This document shows, piece by piece, positions 8,576 to 62,654 of a stretch of 64,000 nucleotides of DNA; position 1 is the stretch's first letter, and the number at the start of each line of letters is the position of its first letter. The notes under the pieces are model-generated. The model ran no database searches, had not been told where the DNA came from, and saw only the letters and a list, made by a program, of their open reading frames with translations. The stretch is from Escherichia coli (GTDB lineage Bacteria; Pseudomonadota; Gammaproteobacteria; Enterobacterales; Enterobacteriaceae). Both the position numbers and the translations under genes were made by a program. Location of the stretch: the NCBI RefSeq assembly GCF_029227855.1, contig NZ_CP074356.1; one strand, given 5' to 3'.

Positions 8576-11500
8576 TTACGCCTCCTCTTCATGGCGAGCA
8601 AAGCGACTTTTGGTCCACAATGCCAGGCGGTCGAACAGCAGATAAATCACCGGCGTGGTGAACAGCGTCAGCACCTGGCTGACAATCAGACCGCCGACCA
8701 TGCCGATACCTAACGGACGACGCAGTTCCGCGCCGACCCCGGTACTCAACATCAGCGGCAGCGCGCCAAGCAGAGCCGCCAGAGTGGTCATCAGGATCGG
8801 ACGAAAACGTAACAGACAAGCCTGGTAGATTGCCTCGCGCGGCGACATGCCTTGCTCGCGCTCAGCAGCCAGCGCGAAGTCGATCATCATGATGGCGTTC
8901 TTCTTCACGATACCGATCAGCAAAATAATGCCGATAATCGCAATCACATCCAGCTCGCTACCGGCAATCAGTAACGCCAGCAGTGCGCCGACCCCTGCGG
9001 TGGGTAGCGTCGAGAGAATGGTGATCGGGTGAATAAAGCTCTCGTACAGAATGCCGAGCACGATATACATCGCCACCACCGCCGCGACAATCAGCCAGAC
9101 AGTGCTGCCCAACGCCGACTGGAAGGCGAGGGTGCTGCCCTGGAACTGCGTGGTGATATCCACCGGCAGATTCAGCGTCTTTTCGGTGTCCATAATCGCC
9201 TGCACCGCATCGCCCAGCGAATAGTTATCCGGCACGTTAAAGGAGATGGTCGTTACCGGGAACTGATCCAGATGGTTGATGGAAAGCGGCGCAAAACGCT
9301 GCTCAATTTTGGCAATTGAGCTTAACGGCACCACTCCACCGTCGCTGCTGGTCAGGCGAATGGTATCCAGCGCCGCGAGGCCTGGGGTATTTTCGGTGTT
9401 GTGTTCCAGCACCACGCGATACTGGTTAGCCTGAGTATAAATAGTGGAAATCAGCCGCTGACCAAACGCGTTGTACAGGGCGTTATCGACATCCGCCATG
9501 CTGATCCCCAGACGGCTGGCGCTGTCGCGATCAACATTGACATACGCCACCAGCCCTTTGTCCTGCCAGTCGCTGGAGACATCAGATAGCTGTGGCAGCT
9601 GCTGGAGTTTTTCCATCAACTGTGGCACCCAGGTACTGAGCGCATCCAGTGACGTGGCCTGCAAGGTAAACTGGTACTGGGTGCGGCTGACCTGAGTATC
9701 GATGGTCAGGTCCTGCGTTGGTTGCAGGAAGAGATCGACGCCCGGCACTTTATCCACCGCCGTTTGCAGACGGGCGATGACTTTTTGCACCCGATCATCA
9801 CGTTCATCCAGCGGTTTGAGGTTGATCTGCAAACGCGCACTGTTCAGCGACGGGTTAGTGCCATCAACGCCAACAAATGAGGTCAGACTTTGCACTGCCG
9901 GATCCTGCAAAATCACGTCCGCGACCTGGCGTTGCCGCTGGGCCATATTGGCAAAGGAGCTGGATTGCGGTGCCTGCAAAGTGCCCTGAATAATGCCGTT
10001 ATCCTGTACCGGGAAGAAACCTTTCGGAATGAACACCCACAACAGCACGCTAAGCAGCAGCGTGCTGAGTGCCACGCTTAAGGTCAGCCACGGATGATTC
10101 AGCACTTTCGCCAGTCCACGACCATAGGCGGCGATTATCCTGTCGAACATTTTCTCCGAGGCTCGGGAGAAGCGATTCTGTTTACGCAGCGACTCCTGGC
10201 TGAGCATCCGCGCGCACATCATCGGCGTCAGAGTCAGCGACACCACGGCTGAGATCAAAATTGCTACCGCCAGGGTAATGGCAAACTCGCGGAACAGTCG
10301 CCCGACGATATCGCCCATAAACAGTAGCGGGATCAGCACTGCAATCAGCGAGAAGGTCAGCGAGATAATGGTAAAACCGATTTCACCTGCGCCTTTGAGC
10401 GCCGCCGCCAGCGGTTTTTCGCCTTTTTCGATATAGCGCGAAATGTTCTCGATCACCACGATGGCGTCATCGACCACGAATCCGGTGGCGATAGTTAACG
10501 CCATCAGCGTCAGGTTATTGATCGAAAAATCGAGAAACACCATGACTGCGAAGGTGCCGATTAACGACAGCGGCACTGCGACGCCAGGAATAATGGTCGC
10601 CGGAATATTGCGCAAAAACAGGTAGATAATCATGACTACCAGCGCGATAGCCATCATCAGTTCAAACTGGGTATCGTCGACCGATGCGCGGATGTTGGTG
10701 GTGCGGTCAGAAAGCACCGTCACTTTTACCGATTTCGGCAAACTCTCGGTGAGTTGTGGCAGCATCTGCCGGATGCTGTCGGCGGTGGAGATAATGTTAG
10801 CACCGGGCTGGCGCTGAACATTCATCACAATGGCCTGTTCTTTGTTCGCCCACGCGCCGAGCCAGCTGTTTTCTGCTCCTTGCTCTACGGTTGCGACATC
10901 GCCCAGACGAATCGGCGCGCCGTTCTGGTAGGCGATGATCAGCTGGCGATACTCTTCGGCGGATTGCATCTGGTCGTTCGCGGAAAGTGTGACCGCACGG
11001 GAAGGGCCGTCGAGGCTACCTTTTGCCGAGTTAACGTTAGCGCCGGTAATAGCGGTGCGCACGGTTTCGCTGGTCAGGCCGAGGGCGGCAATCGCCTGGG
11101 CGTTAAGTTTGACGCGAACAGCCGGACGCTGGCCGCCGGAAAGCGTCACCAGGCCGACGCCGGAAATCTGCGAGATTTTTTGCGCGACGCGGGTTTCCAC
11201 CATATCTTCCACTTGCGTCATCGGCATGGCGGTTGAGGTGACAGCGAGCGTCATGATTGGCGGATCTGCCGGGTTCACTTTGCTGTAAACCGGCGGGTTA
11301 GGCAGATCGCTCGGTAGCAGGTTGGTCGCAGCGTTAATCGCGGCCTGCACTTCCTGCTCGGCGACATCCAGCGGTAATGTTAGCTGGAACTGCAAAGTGA
11401 TAACTGACGCACCGCCGGAACTTTGCGACGACATCTGTTTCAGGCCGGACATCTGCCCGAACTGGCGTTCGAGCGGCGCGGTAACGGCAGAGGTCATGAC

Positions 11501-13175: not shown

Positions 13176-13320
13176 AACGGGAAAGCCCCTCCCGAGGAAG
13201 GGGCCATAAATAAATAAGGAAAGGGTCATGATGAAGCTACTCATCATCGTGGTGCTCTTAGTCATTAGCTGGCCAGCTTACTAAGACTACCAGGGCGGGG
13301 GAAACCCCGCTCTACCCTCA
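13176..13320 (-). ncRNA. Sib-type antisense sRNA, copy 1 (antitoxin of ibs)
   Basis: Minus-strand promoter TTGACA (13355..13350), 17-bp spacer, TACTTT (13332..13327); transcript fully overlaps ibs copy 1; GC-rich hairpin (13186..13205) followed by a U-rich stretch on the minus strand. Ends are approximate. Confidence 0.5.
13228..13284 (+). CDS. Type I toxin Ibs, 18 aa hydrophobic peptide (MMKLLIIVVLLVISWPAY)
   Basis: ATGATG start followed by a hydrophobic 18-codon ORF, typical of Ibs toxins, preceded by AAGGAAAGGG. Confidence 0.75.
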   Translation: MMKLLIIVVLLVISWPAY

Positions 13321-13506
13321 CTCCTGAAAGTATGCCTTCACGATAAGATTGTCAATCTGCAGGCTTTGCAGTCTGCGATCCTGCCAGCAAATATTCTTTG
13401 CGAGACGTTACGCAATAATCACACTGGAAACTATTTTATCCGCAAGTCAGCGATAGACTGCATACAGGGCGAAAGGAGGTAAGCCGACGATTTCAGCGGG
13501 ACGCTG

Positions 13507-13648
13507 AAACGGGAAAGCCCCTCCCGAGGAAGGGGCCTTAAATAAGGAAAGGGTCATGATGAAGATACTCATCATCGTGGTGCTCTTAGTGATTAGCTAC
13601 CCAGCATACTAAGACTACCAGGGCGGGGGAAACCCCGCTCTACCCTCA
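13507..13648 (-). ncRNA. Sib-type antisense sRNA, copy 2
   Basis: Same architecture as copy 1: minus-strand TTGACA (13683..13678), 17-bp spacer, TAATTT (13660..13655); hairpin plus U-rich 3' end near 13507. Ends are approximate. Confidence 0.5.
13556..13612 (+). CDS. Type I toxin Ibs, 18 aa (MMKILIIVVLLVISYPAY)
   Basis: Paralogue of copy 1 at the same position in repeat unit 2. Confidence 0.75.
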   Translation: MMKILIIVVLLVISYPAY

Positions 13649-13835
13649 CTCCTGAAATTATGCCTTCACGATAAGATTGTCAATCTGCAGGCTTTGCAGT
13701 CTGCGATCCTGCCAGCAAATATTCTTTGCGAGTCGTTACGCAATAATCACAGAGGAAACTATTTTGTTCACGCGTTAGCGATAGACTGCATTCAGGGCGA
13801 AAGGAGGTAAGCCGACGATTTCAGCGGGACGCTGA

Positions 13836-13983
13836 AACGGGAAACCCTCTCCCGGAGAAGAGGGCTTTTAATAAGGAAAGGGTTATGATGAAGCACGTCA
13901 TCATACTGGTGATACTCTTAGTGATTAGCTTCCAGGCTTACTAAGAACACCAGGGGGAGGTGGAAACCTCTCCCTAACCCTCA
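13836..13983 (-). ncRNA. Sib-type antisense sRNA, copy 3
   Basis: Minus-strand TTGACA (14018..14013), 17-bp spacer, TAATTT (13995..13990); diverged hairpin CCCTCTCCCGGAGAAGAGGG. Ends are approximate. Confidence 0.45.
13885..13944 (+). CDS. ibsA: Type I toxin Ibs, 19 aa (MMKHVIILVILLVISFQAY), IbsA-like
   Basis: The 19-aa peptide matches the remembered IbsA sequence; it is the most diverged of the three copies. Confidence 0.7.
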   Translation: MMKHVIILVILLVISFQAY

Positions 13984-14164
13984 CTCCTGAAATTATGTCA
14001 CTCCGCCCTTAGTGTCAATCGACGGCTCTCCGTTCTTGCGAGGCGAATAGCAAAATTTTCTGCGCCGCCGGGCCTAATTCTGAAAGTTTCTTCGTTTGCT
14101 CTTATTTCATTATTGCAGTCGGTATGATACCGGACCTCAATAATTCTCTAAGAAAGGATTTCTT

Positions 14165-27029: not shown

Positions 27030-28613
27030 TCACACCTCGTACTCCATCTCGCCATCCTTATGCAGCGGAATAATCTGCACCTTCTGCACGCGATGGCTTT
27101 CCACCTGCAACGTTTTGAGCAAGTAATCCCCTACCTGAACTTCTTCGCCAGGTTTTGGAATACGCTGCAAATATTCCATCAGCAGCCCGGCAATGGTGTG
27201 ATATTCGCGTTTCTCATCCAGCGGTAGCGGCACATATTGCACCAGATCTTCCAGCGGCATATGACCATTCGCCGTCCAGGAACCGTCCGCATTTTTCTGA
27301 ATATCATGGCGGGCGTCGATCTCTTCCACTTCGTTCGGTAAGTTACCGGCAATGGTTTCTGTGACGTCACTTAATGTCACAATCCCTTCCACTGAACCAA
27401 ACTCATCCACCACAAAAGCAAAGTGCGTGCGGGCATTACGGAACTGCTCCAGGGCTGGTAACAACGGCAAGGTTTCCGGGAACACCAGCGGCTGGCGAAT
27501 CAACACCCGCAGGTTGAGCGGTTCGCCGCGCAGTGACTGTTGTAGCAGGTCGATAACGTGAACAACACCGAGCAAATCTTCTGCGTCATCACCGTCGGTA
27601 ACCACCAGCCGCGTATGCTGATTTCGCTCCAGCAACTGGCGGATCTCGTCTTCCGGCGCGTTGAGATCGATATGCTCAATATCGTGGCGCGACGTCATAA
27701 TGCTGCTGACGGTACGCTGATTAAGATTAAGGACCCGCTCAATCATCCGCCGTTCCTGCGGGTTAAAGATCTGCTGGTTACCATGATCCACCAGCATGGA
27801 CGCGGTTTCGGCGTCCAGTTCCGCATCTTCTTTTTGCCCGCTAAGCAGGCGCATTACCGCTTCGGTAGTCCGCTGGCGCAGCGTCTGGTTAGCGGAAAGA
27901 AAACGTCGCCGGTTAAAGATAGCCAACTGATTGAGCGCCTCGATCATCACCGAGAAACCAATGGCAGCGTACAGGTAGCCTTTCGGAATGACGAAGCCGA
28001 AACCTTCCGCCACCAGGCTAAAGCCAATCATCAACAGGAAACTTAAGCAGAGTATGACGATGGTCGGGTGGCTATTAACAAACTGAGTTAACGGCTTGCT
28101 GGCCATCAACATCAGGCTGATAGCGATAACGACGGCGGCCATCATGACCAGTAAATGGTCGACCATTCCGACGGCGGTAATCACCGAGTCGAGTGAGAAG
28201 ATGGCGTCCAGCACCACAATTTGCGTCACCACCCCCCAGAACTTCGCACCTTTGCGTTGCGTGGGGTTATTGCTGTCTTTCCCTTCCAGCCGTTCGTTCA
28301 ACTCCATCGTGGCTTTGAACAACAGGAAGAAACCACCAAACAGCATGATTAAGTCGCGGGCGCTAAAGGTAAACGAGCGGAAGCTGAACAGTGGTTGCGT
28401 CAGGGTGACCAGCCAGGAGATTGACGCCAGCAGTAACAGGCGCATTAACATTGCCAGCAGCAGCCCGGTAACTCGTGCGCGGTCACGCTGCTTCGGCGGT
28501 AGTTTTTCGGCGAGGATGGCAATAAAGACCAGGTTATCAATGCCGAGGACCAGTTCGATCACAATCAGCGTGATTAACCCGGCCCAGATAGACGGATCGG
28601 CAATCCATTCCAT
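27030..28613 (-). CDS. yegH: TerC-family membrane protein with CBS/CorC domains YegH
   Basis: 527 aa from ATG at 28613 ([30 protein letters not shown], TerC motif); C-terminal CBS pair and CorC domain. Confidence 0.9.
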
Positions 28614-29044: not shown

Positions 29045-29083
29045 CAGTGTATTGGTAGCTAAAAAGCCAGGGGCGGTAGCGTG
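29045..29083 (+). promoter_or_regulatory. JUMPstart element with ops (GGCGGTAGCGTG, RfaH recruitment) in the colanic acid operon leader
   Basis: CAGTGTATTGGTAGCTAAAAAGCCAGGGGCGGTAGCGTG matches the 39-bp JUMPstart consensus; ops core at 29072..29083, about 180 bp upstream of wza. Confidence 0.7.
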
Positions 29084-40319: not shown

Positions 40320-40799
40320 ATGTTTTTACGTCAGGAAGACTTTGCCACGGTAGTGCGCTCCACTCCGCTTGTCTCTCTCGACTTTATTGTTGAGAACAGT
40401 CGCGGCGAGTTTCTGCTTGGCAAAAGAACCAACCGCCCGGCGCAGGGTTACTGGTTTGTGCCGGGAGGGCGCGTGCAGAAAGACGAAACGCTGGAAGCCG
40501 CATTTGAGCGGCTGACGATGGCGGAACTGGGGCTGCGTCTGCCGATAACAGCAGGCCAGTTTTACGGTGTCTGGCAGCACTTTTATGACGATAACTTCTC
40601 CGGCACGGATTTCACCACTCACTATTTGGTGCTCGGTTTTCGCTTCAGAGTAGCGGAAGAAGAGCTGTTACTGCCGGATGAGCAGCATGACGATTACCGC
40701 TGGCTGACGCCGGACGCACTGCTCGCCAGTGACAATGTTCACGCTAACAGCCGCGCCTATTTTCTCGCTGAGAAGCGTGCCGGAGTACCCGGATTATGA
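40320..40799 (+). CDS. gmm: GDP-mannose mannosyl hydrolase (Nudix; WcaH/NudD)
   Basis: 159 aa from the second ATG ([21 protein letters not shown]); Nudix fold. Confidence 0.9.
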
Positions 40800-42019
40800 A
40801 AATACTGGTCTACGGCATTAACTACTCGCCGGAGTTAACCGGCATCGGCAAATACACCGGAGAGATGGTGGAATGGCTTGCGGCACAAGGTCATGAGGTG
40901 CGGGTCATAACCGCACCGCCTTACTACCCGCAGTGGCAGGTGGGCGAGAACTATTCCGCCTGGCGCTACAAACGAGAAGAGGGGGCCGCCACGGTGTGGC
41001 GCTGCCCGCTGTACGTGCCAAAACAGCCGAGCACCCTGAAACGCTTGTTGCATCTCGGCAGTTTTGCCGTCAGCAGTTTTTTCCCGTTGATGGCGCAACG
41101 TCGCTGGAAGCCGGATCGCATTATTGGCGTGGTGCCAACGCTGTTTTGCACGCCGGGAATGCGCCTGCTGGCGAAACTCTCTGGCGCGCGTACCGTGCTG
41201 CATATTCAGGATTACGAAGTGGACGCCATGCTGGGGCTGGGCCTTGCCGGAAAAGGCAAAGGCGGCAAAGTGGCACAGCTGGCGACGGCGTTCGAACGTA
41301 GCGGACTGCATAACGTCGATAACGTCTCCACGATTTCGCGCTCGATGATGAATAAAGCCATCGAAAAAGGCGTGGCGGCGGAAAACGTCATCTTCTTCCC
41401 CAACTGGTCGGAAATCGCCCGTTTTCAATATGTTGCAGACGCCGATGTTGATGCCCTTCGTAACCAGCTTGGCCTGCCGGATAACAAAAAAATCATTCTT
41501 TACTCCGGCAATATTGGTGAAAAGCAGGGGCTGGAAAACGTTATTGAAGCTGCCGATCACCTGCGCGATGAACCGCTGATTTTTGCCATTGTCGGGCAGG
41601 GCGGCGGCAAAGCGCGGCTGGAAAAAATGGCGCAGCAGCGCGGACTGCGCAACATGCAATTTTTTCCGCTGCAATCGTATGACGCTTTACCCGCACTGCT
41701 GAAGATGGGCGATTGCCATCTGGTGGTGCAAAAACGCGGCGCGGCAGATGCCGTATTGCCGTCGAAACTGACCAATATTCTGGCGGTAGGCGGTAACGCG
41801 GTGATTACCGCAGAAGCCCACACCGAACTGGGGCAGCTTTGCGAAACCTTTCCGGGCATTGCGGTTTGCGTAGAGCCGGAATCGGTCGAGGCGCTGGTGG
41901 CGGGGATCCGTCAGGCGCTCCTGCTGCCCAAACACAACACGGTGGCATGTGAATATGCCGAACGCACGCTCGATAAAGAGAACGTGTTACGTCAATTTAT
42001 AAATGATATTCGGGGATAA
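40796..42019 (+). CDS. wcaI: Colanic acid glycosyltransferase WcaI
   Basis: 407 aa; [24 protein letters not shown]. Confidence 0.9.
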
Positions 42020-42021
42020 TT

Positions 42022-43458
42022 ATGGCGCAGTCGAAACTCTATCCAGTTGTGATGGCAGGTGGCTCCGGTAGCCGCTTATGGCCGCTTTCCCGCGTACTTT
42101 ACCCCAAGCAGTTTTTATGCCTGAAAGGCGATCTCACCATGCTGCAAACCACCATCTGCCGCCTGAACGGCGTGGAGTGCGAAAGCCCGGTGGTGATTTG
42201 CAATGAGCAGCACCGCTTTATTGTCGCGGAACAGCTGCGTCAACTGAACAAACTCACCGAGAATATTATTCTCGAACCGGCAGGGCGTAACACTGCACCT
42301 GCCATTGCACTGGCGGCGCTGGCGGCAAAACGTCATAGCCCGGAGAGCGACCCGTTAATGCTGGTGCTGGCGGCGGATCATGTGATTGCCGATGAAGACG
42401 CGTTCCGTGCCGCCGTGCGTAATGCCATGCCGTATGCCGAAGCGGGCAAGCTGGTGACCTTTGGCATTGTGCCGGATCTACCAGAAACCGGTTATGGCTA
42501 TATTCGTCGCGGTGAAGTGTCTGCGGGTGAGCAGGATACGGTGGCCTTTGAAGTGGCGCAGTTTGTCGAAAAACCGAATCTGGAAACCGCTCAGGCCTAT
42601 GTGGCAAGCGGCGAATATTACTGGAACAGCGGTATGTTTCTGTTCCGCGCCGGACGCTATCTCGAAGAACTGAAAAAATATCGCCCGGATATTCTCGACG
42701 CCTGTGAAAAAGCGATGAGCGCCGTCGATCCGGATCTCGATTTTATTCGTGTGAATGAAGACGCGTTTCTGGCGTGCCCGGAAGAGTCGGTGGATTACGC
42801 GGTCATGGAACGTACGGCAGATGCTGTTGTGGTGCCGATGGATGCGGGCTGGAGCGATGTTGGTTCCTGGTCCTCTTTATGGGAAATCAGCGCCCACACC
42901 GCCGAGGGCAACGTTTGCCACGGCGATGTGATTAATCATAAAACTGAAAACAGCTATGTGTACGCCGAATCTGGCCTGGTCACCACCGTCGGGGTGAAAG
43001 ATTTGGTGGTAGTGCAGACCAAAGATGCGGTGCTGATTGCCGACCGTAACGCGGTACAGGATGTGAAAAAAGTGGTCGAGCAGATCAAAGCCGACGGTCG
43101 CCATGAGCATCGGGTGCATCGCGAAGTGTATCGTCCGTGGGGCAAATATGACTCTATTGATGCGGGCGACCGCTACCAGGTGAAACGCATCACCGTGAAA
43201 CCGGGCGAAGGCTTGTCAGTACAGATGCACCATCACCGCGCGGAACACTGGGTAGTGGTCGCGGGAACGGCAAAAGTCACTATTGACGGTGATATCAAAC
43301 TGCTTGGTGAAAACGAGTCCATTTATATTCCGCTGGGGGCGACGCACTGCCTGGAAAACCCGGGGAAAATTCCGCTCGATTTAATTGAAGTGCGCTCCGG
43401 CTCTTATCTCGAAGAGGATGATGTGGTGCGCTTCGCGGATCGCTACGGACGGGTGTAG
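42022..43458 (+). CDS. cpsB: Mannose-1-phosphate guanylyltransferase (ManC/CpsB)
   Basis: 478 aa; [24 protein letters not shown]. Confidence 0.95.
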
Positions 43459-43558
43459 CCGTTGAATAATCAACCGGATTAATTCTCCGGTAAATAACGA
43501 AAAAACAAAATTGGCCGCTTCGGTCAGGGCCAACTATTGCCTGAAAAAGGGTAACGAT

Positions 43559-52006: not shown

Positions 52007-52900
52007 ATGACGAATTTAAAAGCAGTTATTCCTGTAGCGGGTCTTGGGATGCATATGTTGCCTGCCACTAAGGCGATTCCCAAAGAGATGCTACCCATCG
52101 TCGACAAGCCAATGATTCAGTACATTGTTGACGAGATTGTGGCTGCAGGGATCAAAGAAATCCTCCTGGTAACTCACGCGTCCAAGAACGCGGTCGAAAA
52201 CCACTTCGACACCTCTTATGAATTAGAATCTCTCCTTGAGCAGCGCGTGAAGCGTCAACTGCTTGCGGAAGTGCAGTCCATCTGTCCTCCGGGCGTGACC
52301 ATTATGAACGTGCGTCAGGGCGAACCTTTAGGTTTAGGCCACTCCATTTTATGTGCACGACCTGCTATTGGTGACAACCCATTTGTCGTGGTGCTGCCAG
52401 ACGTTGTGATCGACGACGCGAGTGCCGACCCGCTGCGTTACAACCTTGCTGCCATGATTGCGCGCTTCAACGAAACGGGCCGCAGCCAGGTGCTGGCAAA
52501 ACGTATGCCGGGTGACCTCTCTGAATACTCTGTCATCCAGACCAAAGAGCCGCTGGACCGTGAAGGTAAGGTCAGCCGCATTGTTGAATTTATCGAAAAA
52601 CCAGATCAGCCGCAGACGCTGGACTCAGACATCATGGCCGTTGGCCGCTATGTGCTTTCTGCCGATATTTGGCCGGAGCTAGAACGCACTCAGCCTGGTG
52701 CATGGGGACGTATCCAACTGACAGATGCTATTGCCGAACTGGCGAAAAAACAGTCCGTTGAAGCCATGCTGATGACCGGCGACAGTTACGACTGCGGTAA
52801 AAAAATGGGTTATATGCAAGCGTTCGTGAAGTATGGACTACGCAACCTGAAAGAAGGGGCGAAGTTCCGTAAAGGGATTGAGAAGCTGTTAAGCGAATAA
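52007..52900 (+). CDS. galF: UTP-glucose-1-phosphate uridylyltransferase-like regulatory subunit GalF
   Basis: 297 aa from ATG at 52007 ([30 protein letters not shown]). Confidence 0.95.
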
Positions 52901-53157
52901 TGAAAATCTAACCGAATGTAACGGTTGATAAGAAAATTGTAACGGCAGTGAGGATTCGTGGCGAAAGTAATTGTTGCGAATATTCCTGCCGTTGTTTTAT
53001 ATAAACAATCAGAATAACAACGAGTTAGCAATAGGATTTTAGTCAAAGTTTTCCAGGATTTTCCTTGTTTCCAGAGCGGATTGGTAAGACAATTAGCGTT
53101 TGAATTTTTCGGGTTTAGCGCGAGTGGGTAACGCTCGTCACATCGTAGACATGCATG

Positions 53158-53196
53158 CAGTACTCTGGTAGCTGTAAAGCCAGGGGCGGTAGCGTG
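53158..53196 (+). promoter_or_regulatory. JUMPstart element with ops (GGCGGTAGCGTG) upstream of the O-antigen cluster
   Basis: CAGTACTCTGGTAGCTGTAAAGCCAGGGGCGGTAGCGTG, 39 bp; ops core at 53185..53196, about 100 bp upstream of the first O-antigen gene. Confidence 0.75.
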
Positions 53197-53297
53197 TCTA
53201 GTTCAATCCGAGTAAATTAAAAATAATAGTTTTGGAAAAATTGTCTTTATAATGTTAACAAAGCAAGAGTAGGTAATACATATCGTTTTGACATGTA

Positions 53298-54362
53298 TTG
53301 CACTTAAAGAAAACATATCAATTAAATTATCATACTATGCTTATTTACAATACAATATTTGTCTTTTTATCATTTCTTGCACTTTTAGATTTAAGTCATA
53401 AAAAAAATTTGTTATTTTTTTTATTTCCTTGTTTTATATTACTACTGTTAACTGCTATTCGTGGTAATGGAGGAGATGATTTTTATGTGTATGAAAAATA
53501 TTTTAACGCTCTTCCTAATGAAATTTTTAACTATGGATATGGTTATTATAGTTTAAATATGTTTGTTAAAAATTTTGGAGAGTATCCTTTTTTTATTATC
53601 ATTTCATCAATAATATGCATAACTCTTCAGGCAATTTTTATTTATCGTGAGACTGAAAAACCAACTCTGGTTTTGTTTTTATTTTATTCAACTAGCTTTT
53701 TATGGTTGGATTTTATTTTAATTAGGCAGTCAATTTCCGTTGGTTTTTTTATTTTGGCAATATCATTTTTCAAAAATAATAAAAAAATTTTTGCCTGTCT
53801 GTTTTTGATTCTATCTTCATTATTTCATGAGACCGCTATTTTTGCTGGAGTAGTTTTTTATATTTTATACAGAGCCGAGAAGGCAGGTTTTCTTTTTACA
53901 ATTGGCTCGGTATTAATTATTGCACCATTTTTATCTGATATAATCACTATCATAAATGATATGACGATAAAAAATAATAATATAACTCTCTATCTGGAGC
54001 AGCGTACCTTACCAAGCATTGCAAATGTAATTGAGTTAACAATAGCATTTGTTGCATTTTATATAATTAATAAAAATTCCGTGTTTAGAGAGAGTAATGA
54101 GTATAAAATATATAAAAGTATACTATATTCTTCACTATGCATACTATTATTGTCTTATACAATCCCATCATTGGCTAGATTCCTAGAATTTTTTCGTTTT
54201 TTTTACTTCATTTTAGTAGTTAGAATGCTAATGCAATTTAATGTGAGAAGTAGATATCTTTTTTTTGTAATTATACTAGCGTACTGTTTTATGAGACTTA
54301 ATAGCTTCATAAATCAATTTGATTCTGGTTTTGATTATATTTATAATGGAAAAATACTGTGA
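53298..54362 (+). CDS. wzy: Polytopic membrane protein, candidate O-antigen polymerase Wzy (EpsG-like)
   Basis: 354 aa, very hydrophobic with multiple predicted TM segments, AT-rich codon usage; first gene after galF. Assignment as Wzy rather than Wzx is a judgement from size and composition only. Confidence 0.5.
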   Translation: MHLKKTYQLNYHTMLIYNTIFVFLSFLALLDLSHKKNLLFFLFPCFILLLLTAIRGNGGDDFYVYEKYFNALPNEIFNYGYGYYSLNMFVKNFGEYPFFIIISSIICITLQAIFIYRETEKPTLVLFLFYSTSFLWLDFILIRQSISVGFFILAISFFKNNKKIFACLFLILSSLFHETAIFAGVVFYILYRAEKAGFLFTIGSVLIIAPFLSDIITIINDMTIKNNNITLYLEQRTLPSIANVIELTIAFVAFYIINKNSVFRESNEYKIYKSILYSSLCILLLSYTIPSLARFLEFFRFFYFILVVRMLMQFNVRSRYLFFVIILAYCFMRLNSFINQFDSGFDYIYNGKIL

Positions 54363-55228
54363 CTATATTATTTTCTGTTATTACTCCTACCTATAATAGG
54401 GCAGATGAGTTAAGCTCATTGTTCAAAAGTCTTAATAATCAAGAGGGTATCGAATTCGAATGGGTGATAATTGATGATGGTTCTGAAGATCATACACAAC
54501 AACAAGTTAATGACTTCAAAAAACATAATAAAAACATCACAGATATAAAATATTTTTATCAAGAGAATAAAGGTAAAAATTCTGCTGTAATTAGAGGGAT
54601 TCAGAATGCTTCCGGCGATTATATTGTGGTGATTGATAGCGATGATTATTTATTGGATGATGCTTTAATAAGAGTAAAAAATATATTAGATGAAGAGAGT
54701 GTTAATGGCGATGATAAAATAATTGGCATTTCAGGTGTTAAAGTTAAAAGTGATTTCACACCTGTAAGTTATATTAGCAACTCTTCGGCATTGCGAATGA
54801 GTCATTATGAGTGGTTTTATAAGTTTCAGCGGTTAGGTGATCGGATTGACTTTTATAAAGCCCGAGTGCTTAAAGAGAAAATATTTAATGCATTTCCAAA
54901 GGAAAAGTTTATTACAGAAGACGCATATTGGTTGGACCTCGTTGGGGAAAAAATTTTCATAAATGAACCGTTATTAGTAATAAAATATTTAGAGGGAGGG
55001 CTTAGTTCAAGTTACTCATTACTCCTGCGAAACAGTCCTTTTGGAACATCATATTATTATTATATTCTATTAATTAATGCTGATAATTTTAAAACAAAAC
55101 TTAAAGCATCATTATTGATGATGTACTATATATTTGTTACCATATTAAAAAATAGTAATATAGTAATTGGGTTATTGTCACTCATGTTATTTCCAATCTT
55201 ATGTATAATAAAATTCTTTCGAAGCTAA
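54359..55228 (+). CDS. Glycosyltransferase family 2
   Basis: 289 aa; MTILFSVITPTYNRADEL...WVIIDDGSEDHT (GT2 DXD region). Confidence 0.8.
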   Translation: MTILFSVITPTYNRADELSSLFKSLNNQEGIEFEWVIIDDGSEDHTQQQVNDFKKHNKNITDIKYFYQENKGKNSAVIRGIQNASGDYIVVIDSDDYLLDDALIRVKNILDEESVNGDDKIIGISGVKVKSDFTPVSYISNSSALRMSHYEWFYKFQRLGDRIDFYKARVLKEKIFNAFPKEKFITEDAYWLDLVGEKIFINEPLLVIKYLEGGLSSSYSLLLRNSPFGTSYYYYILLINADNFKTKLKASLLMMYYIFVTILKNSNIVIGLLSLMLFPILCIIKFFRS

Positions 55229-56406
55229 GAAACACTATTCTTCCTTGTTTCACTCTAGGAACGTCGACGATTTTTTTCTTTGCGATAGGTTTCTTCTTTG
55301 GTATAAATGAAAAATCTGATTTTATATTATTTACGATTACTTTACTTTCAACCATTGGAACTATTCTTCAAATTTCTTGGTATGGATTGTTACCTCGTTT
55401 GAGTTCGAGTTCAAGCTTAAAATTTTTAGGTTATATTATTTCTAATGGTTTTATCTACTGTTTGATCATAAATACCCTACCATTTGTGATTTTAACTCTG
55501 AACTTTACAAACTTTTTTTTTGCAGGGTGTCTCTACTCTTTATTTTTCCAACTGCATCAGTATCTTAAGAATGTTTTTGTTTATCTTGGGCGGCTTAAAG
55601 CATTTTATATTTTTGATGCCATCGGCTATGCCATATGTGTTATAAGTATTACTGTGTTCCAAAAATATCTATTACATTCAAACCCTCAGGATTTATTTGT
55701 TCTGCTTTCGTTATGTTGGCTTTTAATAGTAATTGGTGAGGTCGTACATCTTAAACTATATATTAATTATGACATATCTGTAAAGCCTGTTTATGTATGT
55801 ATTATTCCAACATGGAAAACAAGGATTGCAAACAGTGGTTTTATTGTGAAAGATCTTTTAACTGCGTATGCGCTTAATATACTTGCGCCGGTAGGCGGTT
55901 TAACTATATATTCATACGCAAGTAAGATTTCAACAGCTGTTTTTCAATTATTCTCTCAATATAAAGTAAATGCTTGGGTGGGCAGCATAAGAAAAAAAAG
56001 GTTAAGTGAAGTAGAATACGGTGATATAAAAAAAGTGTCATTATCTTCTTCAATTGATTTTTGTATTTTTCAGATCGTTGCATGGCTTTGTATCTTACCT
56101 ATTATATTATATAATGGCACAAATATAAATATTGAATGGTATGTATTAAGTATTATTACTGGTGGATTACTATACTTGATACAATCAATGGAACAGCCTT
56201 ATGCTAGATTTATTTATATGTCACGACATTTTACCGATATTGCCATCGCAGATGGAATAAATTTTATTATTTATATGGTTTTCTTTTCATATGGATTGTT
56301 AATGTTAAATGTATATTATCTATTTTTAGGTATTATATTAGCTCAATTATGTTCACTAGTTACTTATTCTTTATTTTGCAAGAGGTTGTTTAGGAATGAT
56401 ACCTAA
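55201..56406 (+). CDS. wzx: Polytopic membrane protein, candidate O-antigen flippase Wzx
   Basis: 401 aa with about 10-12 hydrophobic segments; the ORF overlaps the upstream GT2 gene by 28 nt, so the true start is uncertain. Confidence 0.5.
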   Translation: MYNKILSKLRNTILPCFTLGTSTIFFFAIGFFFGINEKSDFILFTITLLSTIGTILQISWYGLLPRLSSSSSLKFLGYIISNGFIYCLIINTLPFVILTLNFTNFFFAGCLYSLFFQLHQYLKNVFVYLGRLKAFYIFDAIGYAICVISITVFQKYLLHSNPQDLFVLLSLCWLLIVIGEVVHLKLYINYDISVKPVYVCIIPTWKTRIANSGFIVKDLLTAYALNILAPVGGLTIYSYASKISTAVFQLFSQYKVNAWVGSIRKKRLSEVEYGDIKKVSLSSSIDFCIFQIVAWLCILPIILYNGTNINIEWYVLSIITGGLLYLIQSMEQPYARFIYMSRHFTDIAIADGINFIIYMVFFSYGLLMLNVYYLFLGIILAQLCSLVTYSLFCKRLFRNDT

Positions 56407-57052
56407 AATAATACATTACTGTTGGTTCGGGGGCGGGGATAAACCTGCTTTAGTTAAAAAATGTATGGGGACATGGGAAAAAGTCTTGCCTGGTTGGGAT
56501 ATTATTGAATGGAACGAAGATAATTCGCCAGTATCAGTTCCTTATGTAAAAAATGCGTTAGAAGATAAACGATATGCATTTGCTGCTGATTATGTAAGAT
56601 TCTATGCGCTAAAAACCATGGGAGGAGTTTATCTTGATACTGATATGGAATTGATCAAAGATATTTCTCCGCTTTTGAATAATAAATTCTTTACAGCGAA
56701 AGAATCAGAGGAGCTTATTAATGCAGCAATAATGGGGAGTGAAAAAGATGGGAGATTTGTCAATTTAGTAATCCAAGAATTACAATTGCGCACAGGACAT
56801 ACTTACGAATCTATACCAAAAATACTTACTGATATATTTAATACAGGAAATGGATTTAAAGATGAAACAACCATTTATGATAAGGAATATTTTTATCCTT
56901 ATAATCCCTTTGATAATAAACGAAATGAAGTTAAACAACTTTTCTATTGTGATATAACTCCTCATACTTATGCCATTCATCACTGGCAACAAAGTTGGCA
57001 CTATACATTTCTTGAACGGGTTATTAACAGAATAAGGATGCTTATAAAGTGA
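56396..57052 (+). CDS. Glycosyltransferase (sugar-transferase DXD family, GT32-like)
   Basis: 218 aa; MIPKIIHYCWFGGG...YLDTDMELIKD, typical of the Gly_transf_sug family. Confidence 0.7.
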   Translation: MIPKIIHYCWFGGGDKPALVKKCMGTWEKVLPGWDIIEWNEDNSPVSVPYVKNALEDKRYAFAADYVRFYALKTMGGVYLDTDMELIKDISPLLNNKFFTAKESEELINAAIMGSEKDGRFVNLVIQELQLRTGHTYESIPKILTDIFNTGNGFKDETTIYDKEYFYPYNPFDNKRNEVKQLFYCDITPHTYAIHHWQQSWHYTFLERVINRIRMLIK

Positions 57053-57819
57053 GTGGAAATAAATTAATAAGCATAATTATGGCATCAAATAAAATAGATG
57101 AGTTTCTACCTCTGGCAATAAACTCAATTCTTGAACAAACATATCAAAATATCGAAGTGATTTTTGTTGCTAATGGTGATAAAGCTCACTGTATTAGTTT
57201 GTATATAAAAAATTTTTTTAAAGATGAGCGAATCAAAATTTATGAAACACCAATAGGCCAACTATCACATGCGCTTAACCTCGCTATTTCTAACGCATCG
57301 GGTGATTATATTGCCCGCATGGATGCTGATGACATTAGTTTACCTGAGCGATTAACTAAACAGTTGGAATATTTAAGGTCACATAATTTAGATATGGTAG
57401 GTTCGGATATAATTCACATAGATACAAATGGAGAAGTTATTGGGATTAAACATTATCCCAAAGGGTTAAATAAAATTAACAAACAATTGTATTTTAGGAA
57501 TACTTTTTCGCATAGCACTATACTAATCAAAAAAAAAATACTCATTTCAGCGAGAGGCTACAATGCTGGATTTAATTCAGAGGACTATGATCTCTGGTTA
57601 AGATTAAGACGGAAGAATATCAAATGGGATAATATGGAGGAATGCCTCTTAAAATATCGTATACATAGTGCATCTACACAAAGGAAGAGATTGGGTTACG
57701 CCGAAGTCGCGGGTTATTCTCTACGTGAATTTTTATTACGTTTCTCATTTATTGGTATTTTTTCTGTTTTAATTCATATTGTTAAAGTTTATATTAAATC
57801 ATCTTCTCATGAAGAATGA
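57049..57819 (+). CDS. Glycosyltransferase family 2
   Basis: 256 aa; ISIIMASNKIDEFLPLAINSILEQTYQNIEVIFV...DADD. Confidence 0.8.
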   Translation: MSGNKLISIIMASNKIDEFLPLAINSILEQTYQNIEVIFVANGDKAHCISLYIKNFFKDERIKIYETPIGQLSHALNLAISNASGDYIARMDADDISLPERLTKQLEYLRSHNLDMVGSDIIHIDTNGEVIGIKHYPKGLNKINKQLYFRNTFSHSTILIKKKILISARGYNAGFNSEDYDLWLRLRRKNIKWDNMEECLLKYRIHSASTQRKRLGYAEVAGYSLREFLLRFSFIGIFSVLIHIVKVYIKSSSHEE

Positions 57820-58010
57820 TTTATATTTTAGGATAATTAACTATTTAAATTAGAATCATTTGAGCAAACTTAGGTAACTCTATATAATACACAGCATTGC
57901 AAATGAGTAACATATTGGAATAGCCATTCAATGGTAATATTACAAATTGCTTTAATAATAATGGATCATTTAGCTATGGTGCAATATTTTCTTCTTGCGG
58001 AATTTTACCC

Positions 58011-59129
58011 ATGAAAATACTTCTAATAGGAAACCTCTCTGATACTATTGTATTATTCAGAGAGAAGTTAATAAGAGAGTTGATTAAAAAAAATATCACG
58101 GTTTATACATTAACGATGGATTCTAATCAAGAAAACTTCAACATCATTGCCAGCTACGGGGCCAAACCTGATTCATACTCTTTTTCTCGTTCAGGTACAA
58201 ATCCTTTTTCTGATATTTGGGATACATACAAATTAAATAAAAAAATAAAAAAAATAAAACCTGACGTTGTTCTTTCTTTTTTTCCAAAACCTGTTATTTA
58301 TGGTTCTTTAGCTGCTAAAATAGCAGGGGTGAAAAAAATATTTAGTCTCTTGGAAGGACTTGGTTTTTGCTATACGAATAATTCTAGTCCAATTAGTCTC
58401 AAAAGGAAGATATTAAAATGTATACAAACAATGCTATACAGAATTAGCTTGCCATTATGTAATAAAGTTTTTTTCTTAAACAAGGATGATTTTAATGATC
58501 TCATTATTGATAATAAAATAACCATAAAGAATTATGAAATAATTGGTGGAATTGGTGTTAATTTAGAAGAGTACAGTTATAAGCAACCAAAGATTGATAA
58601 AATACATTTTGGGATGGTTTCGCGATTACTAGTCGAGAAAGGTATTCGCGAATTTGTTTTGGCCGCGAGCCAGGTGAAAAAAAAATTTCCTGAGGTCGAA
58701 TTTAGTATTGCTGGCGCAATTGATGATAATCCTGGTGGTATAACCGAAGATGAGATAAAAAAATGGGAATCAGAGGGGGTTGTCAAATTTTTAGGTCAAG
58801 TTTCTAATGTTAAAAGTTATTTATCTAATATCTCTGTTTTCGTTTTGCCATCTTACCGAGAAGGCGTACCAAGAAGTACTCAAGAAGCGATGGCTATTGG
58901 GCTTCCAATAATTACAACTAATGTTCCTGGTTGTCGTGATACAATTATCAATATGGTAAATGGAATCATGATCCCACCATTTGATATTCAGTCTCTAGCG
59001 GACGCAATGGTATTTTTTATACAAAACCCTCAGAGTATAACAATAATGGGTAGAGAAAGTAGAATAATTGCAGAGAAAAAGTTTAATGAAATAGAAGCCG
59101 CGAATAAATTACTTAAATTAATAATCTAA
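58011..59129 (+). CDS. Glycosyltransferase family 4 (GT-B, retaining)
   Basis: 372 aa; C-terminal EX7E-type region PSYREGVPRSTQEAMAIGLPIITTNVPG. Confidence 0.8.
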   Translation: MKILLIGNLSDTIVLFREKLIRELIKKNITVYTLTMDSNQENFNIIASYGAKPDSYSFSRSGTNPFSDIWDTYKLNKKIKKIKPDVVLSFFPKPVIYGSLAAKIAGVKKIFSLLEGLGFCYTNNSSPISLKRKILKCIQTMLYRISLPLCNKVFFLNKDDFNDLIIDNKITIKNYEIIGGIGVNLEEYSYKQPKIDKIHFGMVSRLLVEKGIREFVLAASQVKKKFPEVEFSIAGAIDDNPGGITEDEIKKWESEGVVKFLGQVSNVKSYLSNISVFVLPSYREGVPRSTQEAMAIGLPIITTNVPGCRDTIINMVNGIMIPPFDIQSLADAMVFFIQNPQSITIMGRESRIIAEKKFNEIEAANKLLKLII

Positions 59130-59159
59130 TATATAGATTAACATCTACCGGAGTGTTTT

Positions 59160-60179
59160 ATGGCTATTCTTGTTACTGGCGGAGTTGGTTATATCGCTTC
59201 GCACACTATTATAACTTTACTAGAAAAAGGTGAAGAAGTTATAATACTTGATAATTTATCAAATTCATTCTACGAATCTTTGCATAAAGTTAAAAAAATT
59301 ACCGGGTATGATAGTCGATTTTATAGAGGTGATATACTTGACAAAGAGCTCTTACGCAAAATATTCAAAGAAAACACTATTTCTGACGTAATTCATTTTG
59401 CAGGCTATAAATCTGTAAAAGAATCCATTTCTCACCCATTGAAATACTATCAAAATAACGTTTCTGGTACATTGTCATTAATAGATGCGATGGGGGAGGC
59501 TTGTGTAAAAAGTTTGATTTTTAGCTCATCAGCTACAGTATATGGTGAACCAGAAAGAATACCTTTAGATGAAAATTGCAGAATTGGAGGTACAACGAAT
59601 CCATACGGCACGTCCAAGTTATTCGTAGAAAAATTCCTTATTGATTATTCACATGCATTCCCTGATTTTAGAACTACCATCTTAAGATATTTCAACCCTG
59701 TCGGTGCTCATCCATCTGGTGAAATAGGGGAAGATCCCAATGGTATACCTAACAACTTAATGCCATATATATGTCAAGTTGCTATAGGGAAGCAACAACA
59801 CCTCACTATCTTTGGTAGCGATTATCCAACAAAAGATGGTACAGGTGTTCGTGATTATATCCATGTCATGGATCTTGCTGAAGGGCATGTTGCAGCGTTA
59901 GAACATCGAAATGAAGGAGCAAATTGCAAGATCTATAATCTCGGGACGGGCACAGGATACTCAGTACTGGAACTTGTTGATGCATTTCAAAGAGTTACTG
60001 CACGTAAAGTTCCATATGTATTCAGTAAACGACGACCTGGTGATATTGCTGAGTGTTGGTCTGATCCTTCTAAGGCTTATAGGGAACTTGGATGGAAAGC
60101 GAAGCGTGGGTTGGAAGAAATGGTTCGAGATGCCTGGAATTGGCAACAAAAGAATCCGAACGGTTATATAAAAGCATGA
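59160..60179 (+). CDS. gne: NAD-dependent UDP-hexose 4-epimerase (GalE/Gne family)
   Basis: 339 aa; Rossmann motif VTGGVGYIASH and catalytic YGTSK; UDP-GlcNAc versus UDP-Glc specificity cannot be told from sequence alone. Confidence 0.8.
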   Translation: MAILVTGGVGYIASHTIITLLEKGEEVIILDNLSNSFYESLHKVKKITGYDSRFYRGDILDKELLRKIFKENTISDVIHFAGYKSVKESISHPLKYYQNNVSGTLSLIDAMGEACVKSLIFSSSATVYGEPERIPLDENCRIGGTTNPYGTSKLFVEKFLIDYSHAFPDFRTTILRYFNPVGAHPSGEIGEDPNGIPNNLMPYICQVAIGKQQHLTIFGSDYPTKDGTGVRDYIHVMDLAEGHVAALEHRNEGANCKIYNLGTGTGYSVLELVDAFQRVTARKVPYVFSKRRPGDIAECWSDPSKAYRELGWKAKRGLEEMVRDAWNWQQKNPNGYIKA

Positions 60180-61764: not shown

Positions 61765-62472
61765 CAGAAAACCCCCAGCTAGGCTGGGGGTTCCGGAAAG
61801 CTTTCAGCTTTGAGCCAGTTATTAAAACCCCTTTTGATTTGTTAAAACACTTTGCGGTCTGGCAACTGCAAGTGTCAAACAAGAAATCAAAAGGGGGTCC
61901 CAATGGGGAACGAAAAGAGCTTAGCGCACACCCGATGGAACTGTAAATATCACATAGTTTTTGCGCCAAAATACCGAAGACAGGTGTTCTACAGAGAGAA
62001 GCGTAGAGCAATAGGCAGTATTTTGAGAAAGCTGTGTGAGTGGAAAAGCGTACGGATTCTGGAAGCTGAATGCTGTGCAGATCATATCCATATGCTTGTG
62101 GAGATCCCGCCCAAAATGAGCGTATCCGGCTTTATGGGATATCTGAAAGGGAAAAGCAGTCTGATGCTTTACGAGCAGTTTGGTGATTTGAAATTCAAAT
62201 ACAGGAACAGGGAGTTCTGGTGCAGAGGGTACTACGTCGATACGGTGGGTAAGAACACGGCGAAGATACAGGATTACATAAAGCACCAGCTTGAAGAGGA
62301 TAAAATGGGAGAGCAGTTATCGATTCCCTATCCGGGCAGCCCGTTTACGGGCCGTAAGTAACGAAGTTGGATGCAAATGTCAGATCGTGTGCGCCTGTTA
62401 GGGCGCGGCTGGTAAGAGAGCCTTATAGGCGCATTTGAAAAACCTCCGGCTATGCCGGAGGATATTTATTTT
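61765..62472 (+). mobile_element. IS200-family insertion sequence (IS200/IS605 family); boundaries approximate
   Basis: About 0.7 kb element between gnd and ugd carrying a tnpA ORF; left-end hairpin CCCCCAGCTAGGCTGGGGG and right-end hairpin CCTCCGGCTATGCCGGAGG. gnd and ugd are directly adjacent in K-12. Confidence 0.7.
61903..62361 (+). CDS. tnpA: IS200 transposase TnpA (HUH Y1 transposase)
   Basis: 152 aa from ATG at 61903; MGNEKSLAHTRWNCKYHIVFAPKYRRQVFY...HIHMLVEIPPK (HuH motif) is characteristic of IS200 TnpA. Confidence 0.85.
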   Translation: MGNEKSLAHTRWNCKYHIVFAPKYRRQVFYREKRRAIGSILRKLCEWKSVRILEAECCADHIHMLVEIPPKMSVSGFMGYLKGKSSLMLYEQFGDLKFKYRNREFWCRGYYVDTVGKNTAKIQDYIKHQLEEDKMGEQLSIPYPGSPFTGRK

Positions 62473-62654
62473 TACCAATTATCTTATAGACTAAATTTCA
62501 CTGCTTAATATTAACTTAATAAATATCAGCTATTCTTATAAAGAAATTCTGAATTGTTTTTCGTTGCGTTGACCATCCAACAACGTAGCGTTAAAACTTT
62601 TAGCTCTTATCAGGATGCTAAAAACATCATGATTCACAGTTAAGTTAATTCTGA

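Follow-up and report, generated by a model that had tools for sequence, protein, structure and literature searches.

A JUMPstart element with an intact ops site, a probable RfaH loading point, at the left border of the Escherichia coli O23 O-antigen cluster

In structural work on the 12-nt ops site (ops12), G4, G5, A7 and G8 were found to be essential for RfaH recruitment, with a contribution of C3 and T6, and T11-G12 was found to induce a pause, the non-template strand folding into a small hairpin from which a T is flipped out (Zuber et al. 2018, PMC5995543). For the O-antigen ('wzx') unit of E. coli CFT073 (serogroup O6), an RNA-seq-defined transcription unit (TU) start has been located 67 nt ahead of the first ops base, together with a sigma-70 ChIP peak upstream of ops and an RfaH ChIP peak running from the leader through wzx, wzy, glycosyltransferase genes, galE, cpsB, cpsG, gnd, ugd and wzzB; upon deletion of rfaH, RNA polymerase (RNAP) occupancy 5.4 kb downstream fell to approximately one third relative to control units, the RfaH-dependent travelling ratio being about 0.34 (Hustmyer et al. 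2022, PMC9765446). In the same strain the wza unit was silenced at initiation and bound RfaH only in an hns stpA double deletion strain, and E. coli K-12 is cited as having two RfaH-bound operons (PMC9765446). In the O-antigen literature, JUMPstart is the conserved sequence that borders every E. coli O-antigen cluster on the left. For the rfb cluster of E. coli O7, Marolda and Valvano reportedly described, in 1998, a promoter between galF and the first gene (rmlB), with a transcript start upstream of JUMPstart; the leader is said to be about 173 nt long, with a JUMPstart carrying two GGTAGC ('ops') repeats, and leader stem-loops were reportedly proposed as well.

The window analyzed here is a stretch of 64,000 nucleotides of E. 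coli DNA, read on one strand. Comparison of the whole window with all 4,227 Rfam families (cmscan) placed the JUMPstart family (RF01707) at exactly 53158-53196 on the plus strand, where the 39 bases are CAGTACTCTGGTAGCTGTAAAGCCAGGGGCGGTAGCGTG. The match covered model positions 1-38 of 38 and scored 60 bits (gathering score 35), with E-values of 2.7e-11 for the whole window and 1.7e-13 in a local scan; a permissive local Rfam scan of 53000-53400 (E up to 1) returned no match besides JUMPstart. The 3' end of the element is an exact copy of the 12-base ops, GGCGGTAGCGTG (53185-53196, +), and this exact site and the full-length Rfam match confirm the 39-bp JUMPstart/ops motif proposed in the initial annotation. 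The first GGTAGC of an internal direct repeat (half-ops) was found at 53167-53172 (+). All positions of the 12-nt ops requirement (GGCGGTAGnnTG), including C3-G8 and the pause dinucleotide T11-G12, are present at 53185-53196, and the 12-mer is identical to ops12, RfaH-recruitment and pause bases included (Zuber et al. 2018, PMC5995543); in CFT073, the O-antigen, wza and rfaQ units also carry this ops (PMC9765446). The site, at which the non-template strand would recruit RfaH and signal a pause, has the orientation of the genes downstream and a non-coding position; the entire element is non-coding and sits between the end of galF (52900) and the start of wzy (53337), all on the plus strand, as expected for a polysaccharide cluster. 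The described JUMPstart (Hobbs and Reeves 1994; RF01707) has the same 39 bases and the same place downstream of galF, and only one base differs here: at 53162 the sequence reads CAGTA instead of the common E. coli form CAGTG (G-to-A), a position that departs from the Rfam consensus too, the variant being present in 5 of the 98 sampled loci described below. Folding of the 12-nt ops as DNA gave only a marginal hairpin (-0.9 kcal/mol), a value that is uninformative on the protein-bound structure.

Allowing for up to one mismatch, GGCGGTAGCGTG was found at two sites in the window (29072-29083 and 53185-53196), both of them exact and on the plus strand, while 0.32 were expected by shuffling. The former belongs to another JUMPstart/ops copy (29045-29083, +) with a full-length Rfam match of 57.3 bits, which precedes wza in the colanic acid cluster; the element in front of the O-antigen genes had thus been correctly counted as the second. 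The wza ATG is 190 nt from the first ops base of this copy, the same spacing as in the wza unit of CFT073. The flanks of the two copies are unrelated, with almost nothing in common outside the element. The 8-mer GGCGGTAG occurs six times in the window (1.3 expected from shuffles), and the four extra copies, at 10264, 17659, 28495 and 41782, all lack the terminal nnTG, so that the complete 12-mer with its terminal TG is found only in the two JUMPstart copies. At least two of the extra copies are intragenic, namely those at 28495 (within a TerC-family ORF) and 41782 (within ORF 40796-42019); according to published work, ops-like sites inside coding regions fail to load RfaH.

The conserved galF gene (52007-52900, +; Pfam NTP_transferase) lies upstream of the O-antigen locus, and in the O23 genome NZ_CP019256 the RefSeq galF stops at the equivalent of 52900. 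A run of 440 bases that starts at the galF stop and reaches into the first gene showed 100% identity with E. coli 13TMH22, in whose RefSeq annotation the genes are named O23-family wzy and wzx; the locus is the E. coli O23 O-antigen cluster. Its first gene, wzy (53337-54362, +), codes for the O23-family O-antigen polymerase, based on the RefSeq annotation of the identical stretch and on a Pfam EpsG match (E = 1e-35), and is followed by the remaining O23 genes (54359-60179, +) in the order GT2, wzx (a 401-aa membrane protein), GT32-like, GT2, GT4 and gne/galE (GalE/Gne epimerase), with gnd and ugd beyond them. In the CFT073 O6 cluster the downstream genes are different, and wzx rather than wzy comes first (Hustmyer et al. 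2022, PMC9765446). The GC content drops at 53197, stays at 0.23-0.34 from 53200 to approximately 59600 (0.42-0.55 in the flanks) and recovers near gnd, the O23 cluster from wzy through gne thus comprising about 7 kb at 23-34% GC. Being an AT-rich operon, the cluster is therefore probably bound by H-NS and prone to Rho termination. The second GT2 gene and the GT4 gene are separated by a 191-bp non-coding gap (57820-58010), which includes TTGAGC-17-TATAAT (57860-57888) and may correspond either to an internal promoter or to a seam from cluster assembly; promoter-like matches in DNA this rich in AT do not exceed chance.

The portion of the leader located between the element and wzy (53197-53336, +) is O23-specific and AT-rich (24% GC), cross-serogroup similarity stopping at 53196. 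The start of wzy is ATG 53337 according to RefSeq, 140 nt after the element, while the longest ORF begins at TTG 53298, 101 nt after it. The latter explains the distance of about 100 bp to the first O-antigen gene given in the initial annotation, a figure that holds for the TTG start but falls short of the RefSeq start. An NCBIfam scan returned no informative match on the wzy start codon, and no GGAG- or AGGA-like Shine-Dalgarno sequence was detected within 25 nt before either candidate start. A long, AT-rich operon and a first gene without a canonical Shine-Dalgarno sequence, both hallmarks of RfaH operons, are therefore found at this locus. The described RfaH/ops system likewise combines an ops on the non-template strand, a 5' leader, a long AT-rich operon and a first gene without a Shine-Dalgarno sequence, and no difference from it was seen at the sequence level. 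The spacing is nevertheless wide: the first ops base is 152 nt away from the first gene (113 nt for the TTG start), compared with 71 nt in CFT073 O6, 87 nt in K-12 and 190 nt for wza. Measured between the last ops base and the start codon, the 140 nt found here exceed the 29-60 nt of the CFT073 O-antigen, kps and rfa units, but are fewer than in CFT073 wza and far fewer than in hly, and the post-ops leader of O23 (140 nt, 24% GC) is about twice as long as those of CFT073 O6 or K-12 O16.

In order to define the left border of the serogroup-specific DNA, the stretch from galF to JUMPstart was compared by megablast with 5,426 complete E. coli genomes, and was found in at least 3,572 of them. In nearly all of the matches listed, the alignment ended at query base 296, equivalent to window position 53196 and the last base of the element, and alignments going on into the O23-specific part were obtained for only 20 of the complete genomes. 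Six other serogroup contexts, picked by their similarity to the whole intergenic region and having as first gene rfbB, pseB, or an acetyltransferase gene then neuB, were also aligned: the element was 90-97% identical among them, and the following 74 nt 31-40%. In addition, metagenome contigs were scanned with a 40-nt JUMPstart pattern, which yielded 101 stretches and, together with earlier loci, a set of 98 usable loci. As these were found by a near-exact pattern, they speak for the breadth of contexts and not for the conservation of the element; 38 distinct downstream sequence types were counted after it, and the majority-base frequency per 10-nt block went from 0.90-0.96 upstream to 0.46-0.54 from the first downstream block onwards. 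Since both the similarity and the majority-base frequency drop at 53196, the serogroup-specific DNA begins, on its left side, precisely where the element ends, and the conserved stretch from galF to JUMPstart can therefore be used as left homology arm in O-antigen cluster exchange.

The element was conserved across unrelated clusters, as seen in the six serogroup contexts selected by similarity and in its recurrence before wza. In NCCP13983 the element was 90% identical to that of the window, and the 60 nt preceding it only 38%. The retention of the element while the adjoining 60 nt diverged points to selection acting on the element itself, and not merely on its flank, as judged from the aligned sequences. 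The pentamer TCTAG, located right after the element (53197-53201), opens several unrelated downstream types, and the wza copy goes on with TCTGG; the conserved element may therefore be 3-5 nt longer than the usual 39 bp.

Regarding transcription, a long hairpin at 52940-52994 followed by the U-run UUGUUUUAU was recovered by RNA folding immediately after galF (52940-53001, +), with a free energy of -27.7 kcal/mol and a z-score of -5.16, none of 200 shuffles being as stable. Its consensus structure was kept in 7 of 7 serogroup contexts, mostly with invariant positions or one-sided changes, and it is likely the intrinsic terminator of galF. A simple terminator scan did not list this hairpin, probably due to criteria unfit for a long stem with internal mismatches. 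Downstream of it, a near-invariant, promoter-like block (53044-53097, +) showed 91-100% identity in the six other contexts, while the segments beside it were down to 43-61% (IMT5155) or 38% (NCCP13983). The proposed -35 (TTGTTT, 53065-53070) and -10 (GACAAT, 53088-53093) hexamers, separated by a 17-nt spacer and read by eye from the sequence, are weak (3/6 and 4/6 matches, respectively). In a consensus promoter scan this block was not listed, the only hits being weak matches in or next to coding sequence, so that its assignment as a promoter draws on conservation and on data from homologous loci.

The CFT073 sequence from galF to JUMPstart matches the window almost base for base, and without gaps over the part that runs from the promoter block through ops; carried over through this gap-free alignment, the TU start of CFT073 corresponds to window position 53118 approximately. 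When the O7 leader, reportedly of 173 nt, was transposed via the K-12 geometry, a start at about 53098 was obtained, which fits GACAAT better. The two estimates, one derived from RNA-seq boundaries and the other from the leader reported for O7, differ by about 20 nt, and under either of them the transcript would start upstream of the element, in the conserved 5' part of the leader (53098-53157, +; predicted start within 53098-53118). JUMPstart would then be located some 40-60 nt inside the transcript. Thus the initial annotation, which took the element as marking the start of the unit, has to be amended in this respect: the element would represent a loading site inside the leader, whose start would lie upstream, as in CFT073 (67 nt before ops). 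The complete leader would measure approximately 220-240 nt, in comparison with the 173 nt or so reported for O7 rfb, where the first gene is said to be rmlB instead of wzy. Conversely, the claim that the O-antigen genes form a unit separate from galF and the colanic acid genes gained support from the galF hairpin, the promoter-like block and the CFT073 data, in which the TU starts upstream of ops and the wza unit is separately silenced.

The reading that best accounts for these observations, to which we assign a probability of about 0.92, is that of a canonical JUMPstart/ops of the O23 O-antigen locus, at which RfaH would load in the leader of a separate transcription unit, both loading and RfaH dependence being extrapolated from homologous loci. 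Transcription would begin at a conserved sigma-70-type promoter, approximately 40-60 nt upstream of the element (roughly 53098-53118), past the terminator-like hairpin that would close galF. By analogy with what is established for identical ops sites elsewhere, RNAP would pause at the ops TG, and the exposed non-template GGCGGTAGCGTG would form a small hairpin that RfaH recognizes. RfaH would then remain with the polymerase until the unit ends, excluding NusG and thereby blocking Rho-dependent termination; as at those sites, it would also suppress pausing within the AT-rich, H-NS-coated cluster and bring the ribosome to a first gene without a Shine-Dalgarno sequence. The predicted outcome at this locus is that wzy, gne and all genes between them are expressed in full (about 7 kb, 23-34% GC). 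The rfaH gene is absent from the window. The literature already covers the element, where it lies, how it works and the fact that it borders E. coli O-antigen clusters, and nothing here is new to biology; the value is one of annotation, as the element marks to the base the left border of O23-specific DNA and, in all probability, the point of RfaH loading, which would explain the full expression of a 7-kb AT-rich, probably H-NS-bound cluster.

An alternative that we regard as unlikely is that the element acts mainly as structured leader RNA, through a 5-bp CUGGU/GCCAG hairpin or a longer stem that includes ops, with effects on mRNA stability, translation or attenuation in which RfaH has no part. 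In Rfam, JUMPstart is indeed represented as a cis-regulatory RNA, with this 5-bp hairpin in its model, and the leader (53098-53345) folds better than shuffles (z-score of -4.28), with a long stem (53146-53154 paired with 53192-53200) around the element. Stem-loops were reportedly proposed for the O7 leader by Marolda and Valvano in 1998. However, the short hairpin is broken in NCCP13983 (GCCTG for GCCAG), the O23-specific part of the leader showed no significant RNA structure (fold z-score of -0.19), and the best-conserved part of the element is the single-stranded ops, whose role at the DNA level has been demonstrated experimentally. The extended stem across the junction was evaluated for covariation in the 98 loci, which provided 50 distinct combinations of upstream and downstream sequence. 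The pair 53149/53197, G-C in K-12 vs. A-U in the window, had been suggestive before this test, but maintenance of the stem 53146-53154/53192-53200 by compensatory change was ruled out, as the paired combinations observed at four positions were those expected under independence (30 vs. 29.4, 12 vs. 11.6, 39 vs. 39.4 and 21 vs. 21.6; Fisher p = 1.0 at the four pairs).

It is also very unlikely that the O-antigen genes do not form a separate RfaH-dependent unit, most of their expression coming instead from galF read-through or from a promoter located after ops. The galF hairpin is a terminator by inference only, spurious promoters are frequent in AT-rich DNA, as noted for H-NS-silenced genes (PMC9765446), and a perfect TATAAT at 53248-53253, 52 nt after ops, could in principle give rise to RfaH-independent transcripts. 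Nevertheless, this TATAAT has neither an acceptable -35 nor a TG extension before it, and promoter-like matches in the AT-rich O23 DNA were no commoner than in shuffles. The galF hairpin, in turn, is strong and conserved and has a U-run behind it, in CFT073 both the sigma-70 peak and the TU start are upstream of ops (PMC9765446), and any transcripts reading through from galF would still cross ops and load RfaH. We consider it more improbable still that the element has no regulatory role at this locus and was kept solely as carried-along galF flank and recombination junction in O-antigen exchange. Similarity among serogroups does end exactly at the 3' end of the element, as a recombination boundary would, yet a role as boundary is compatible with one as loading site. 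Moreover, the same 39 bases recur before wza with unrelated flanks, the element stands in NCCP13983 as an island of conservation with both sides diverged, and RfaH does load at an identical ops in the homologous locus of CFT073 (PMC9765446). RfaH loading at a canonical JUMPstart/ops thus remains the preferred reading of the element. A further scenario, to which we give a low probability, is that the O23 leader, with its long post-ops part and its perfect TATAAT, holds a serogroup-specific second control point, for instance an RfaH-independent promoter silenced by H-NS or an uncharacterized leader signal; if so, the regulation of wzy in O23 would be unlike the textbook case.

Other elements were observed in the window. 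Between gnd and ugd, an IS200-family element (61770-62480) was found, comprising an STnc490 RNA match (61770-61893), a Y1 transposase ORF (61852-62361; Pfam E = 5e-38) and a GC-rich hairpin (62443-62461). The two genes are 960 bp apart here and 249 bp apart in NZ_CP019256, an O23 genome that otherwise matches; the RfaH-modified transcription known to read through into ugd and wzzB in CFT073 could be interrupted by the insertion. On the minus strand, at 13213-14018, Sib antitoxin RNA genes form a tandem array of three (Rfam RF00113, 140-149 bits each). Finally, the Rfam algC RNA motif gave a full-length match of 77 bits at 43505-43554 in the colanic acid cluster, starting in the gap after cpsB (which ends at 43458) and just before cpsG.
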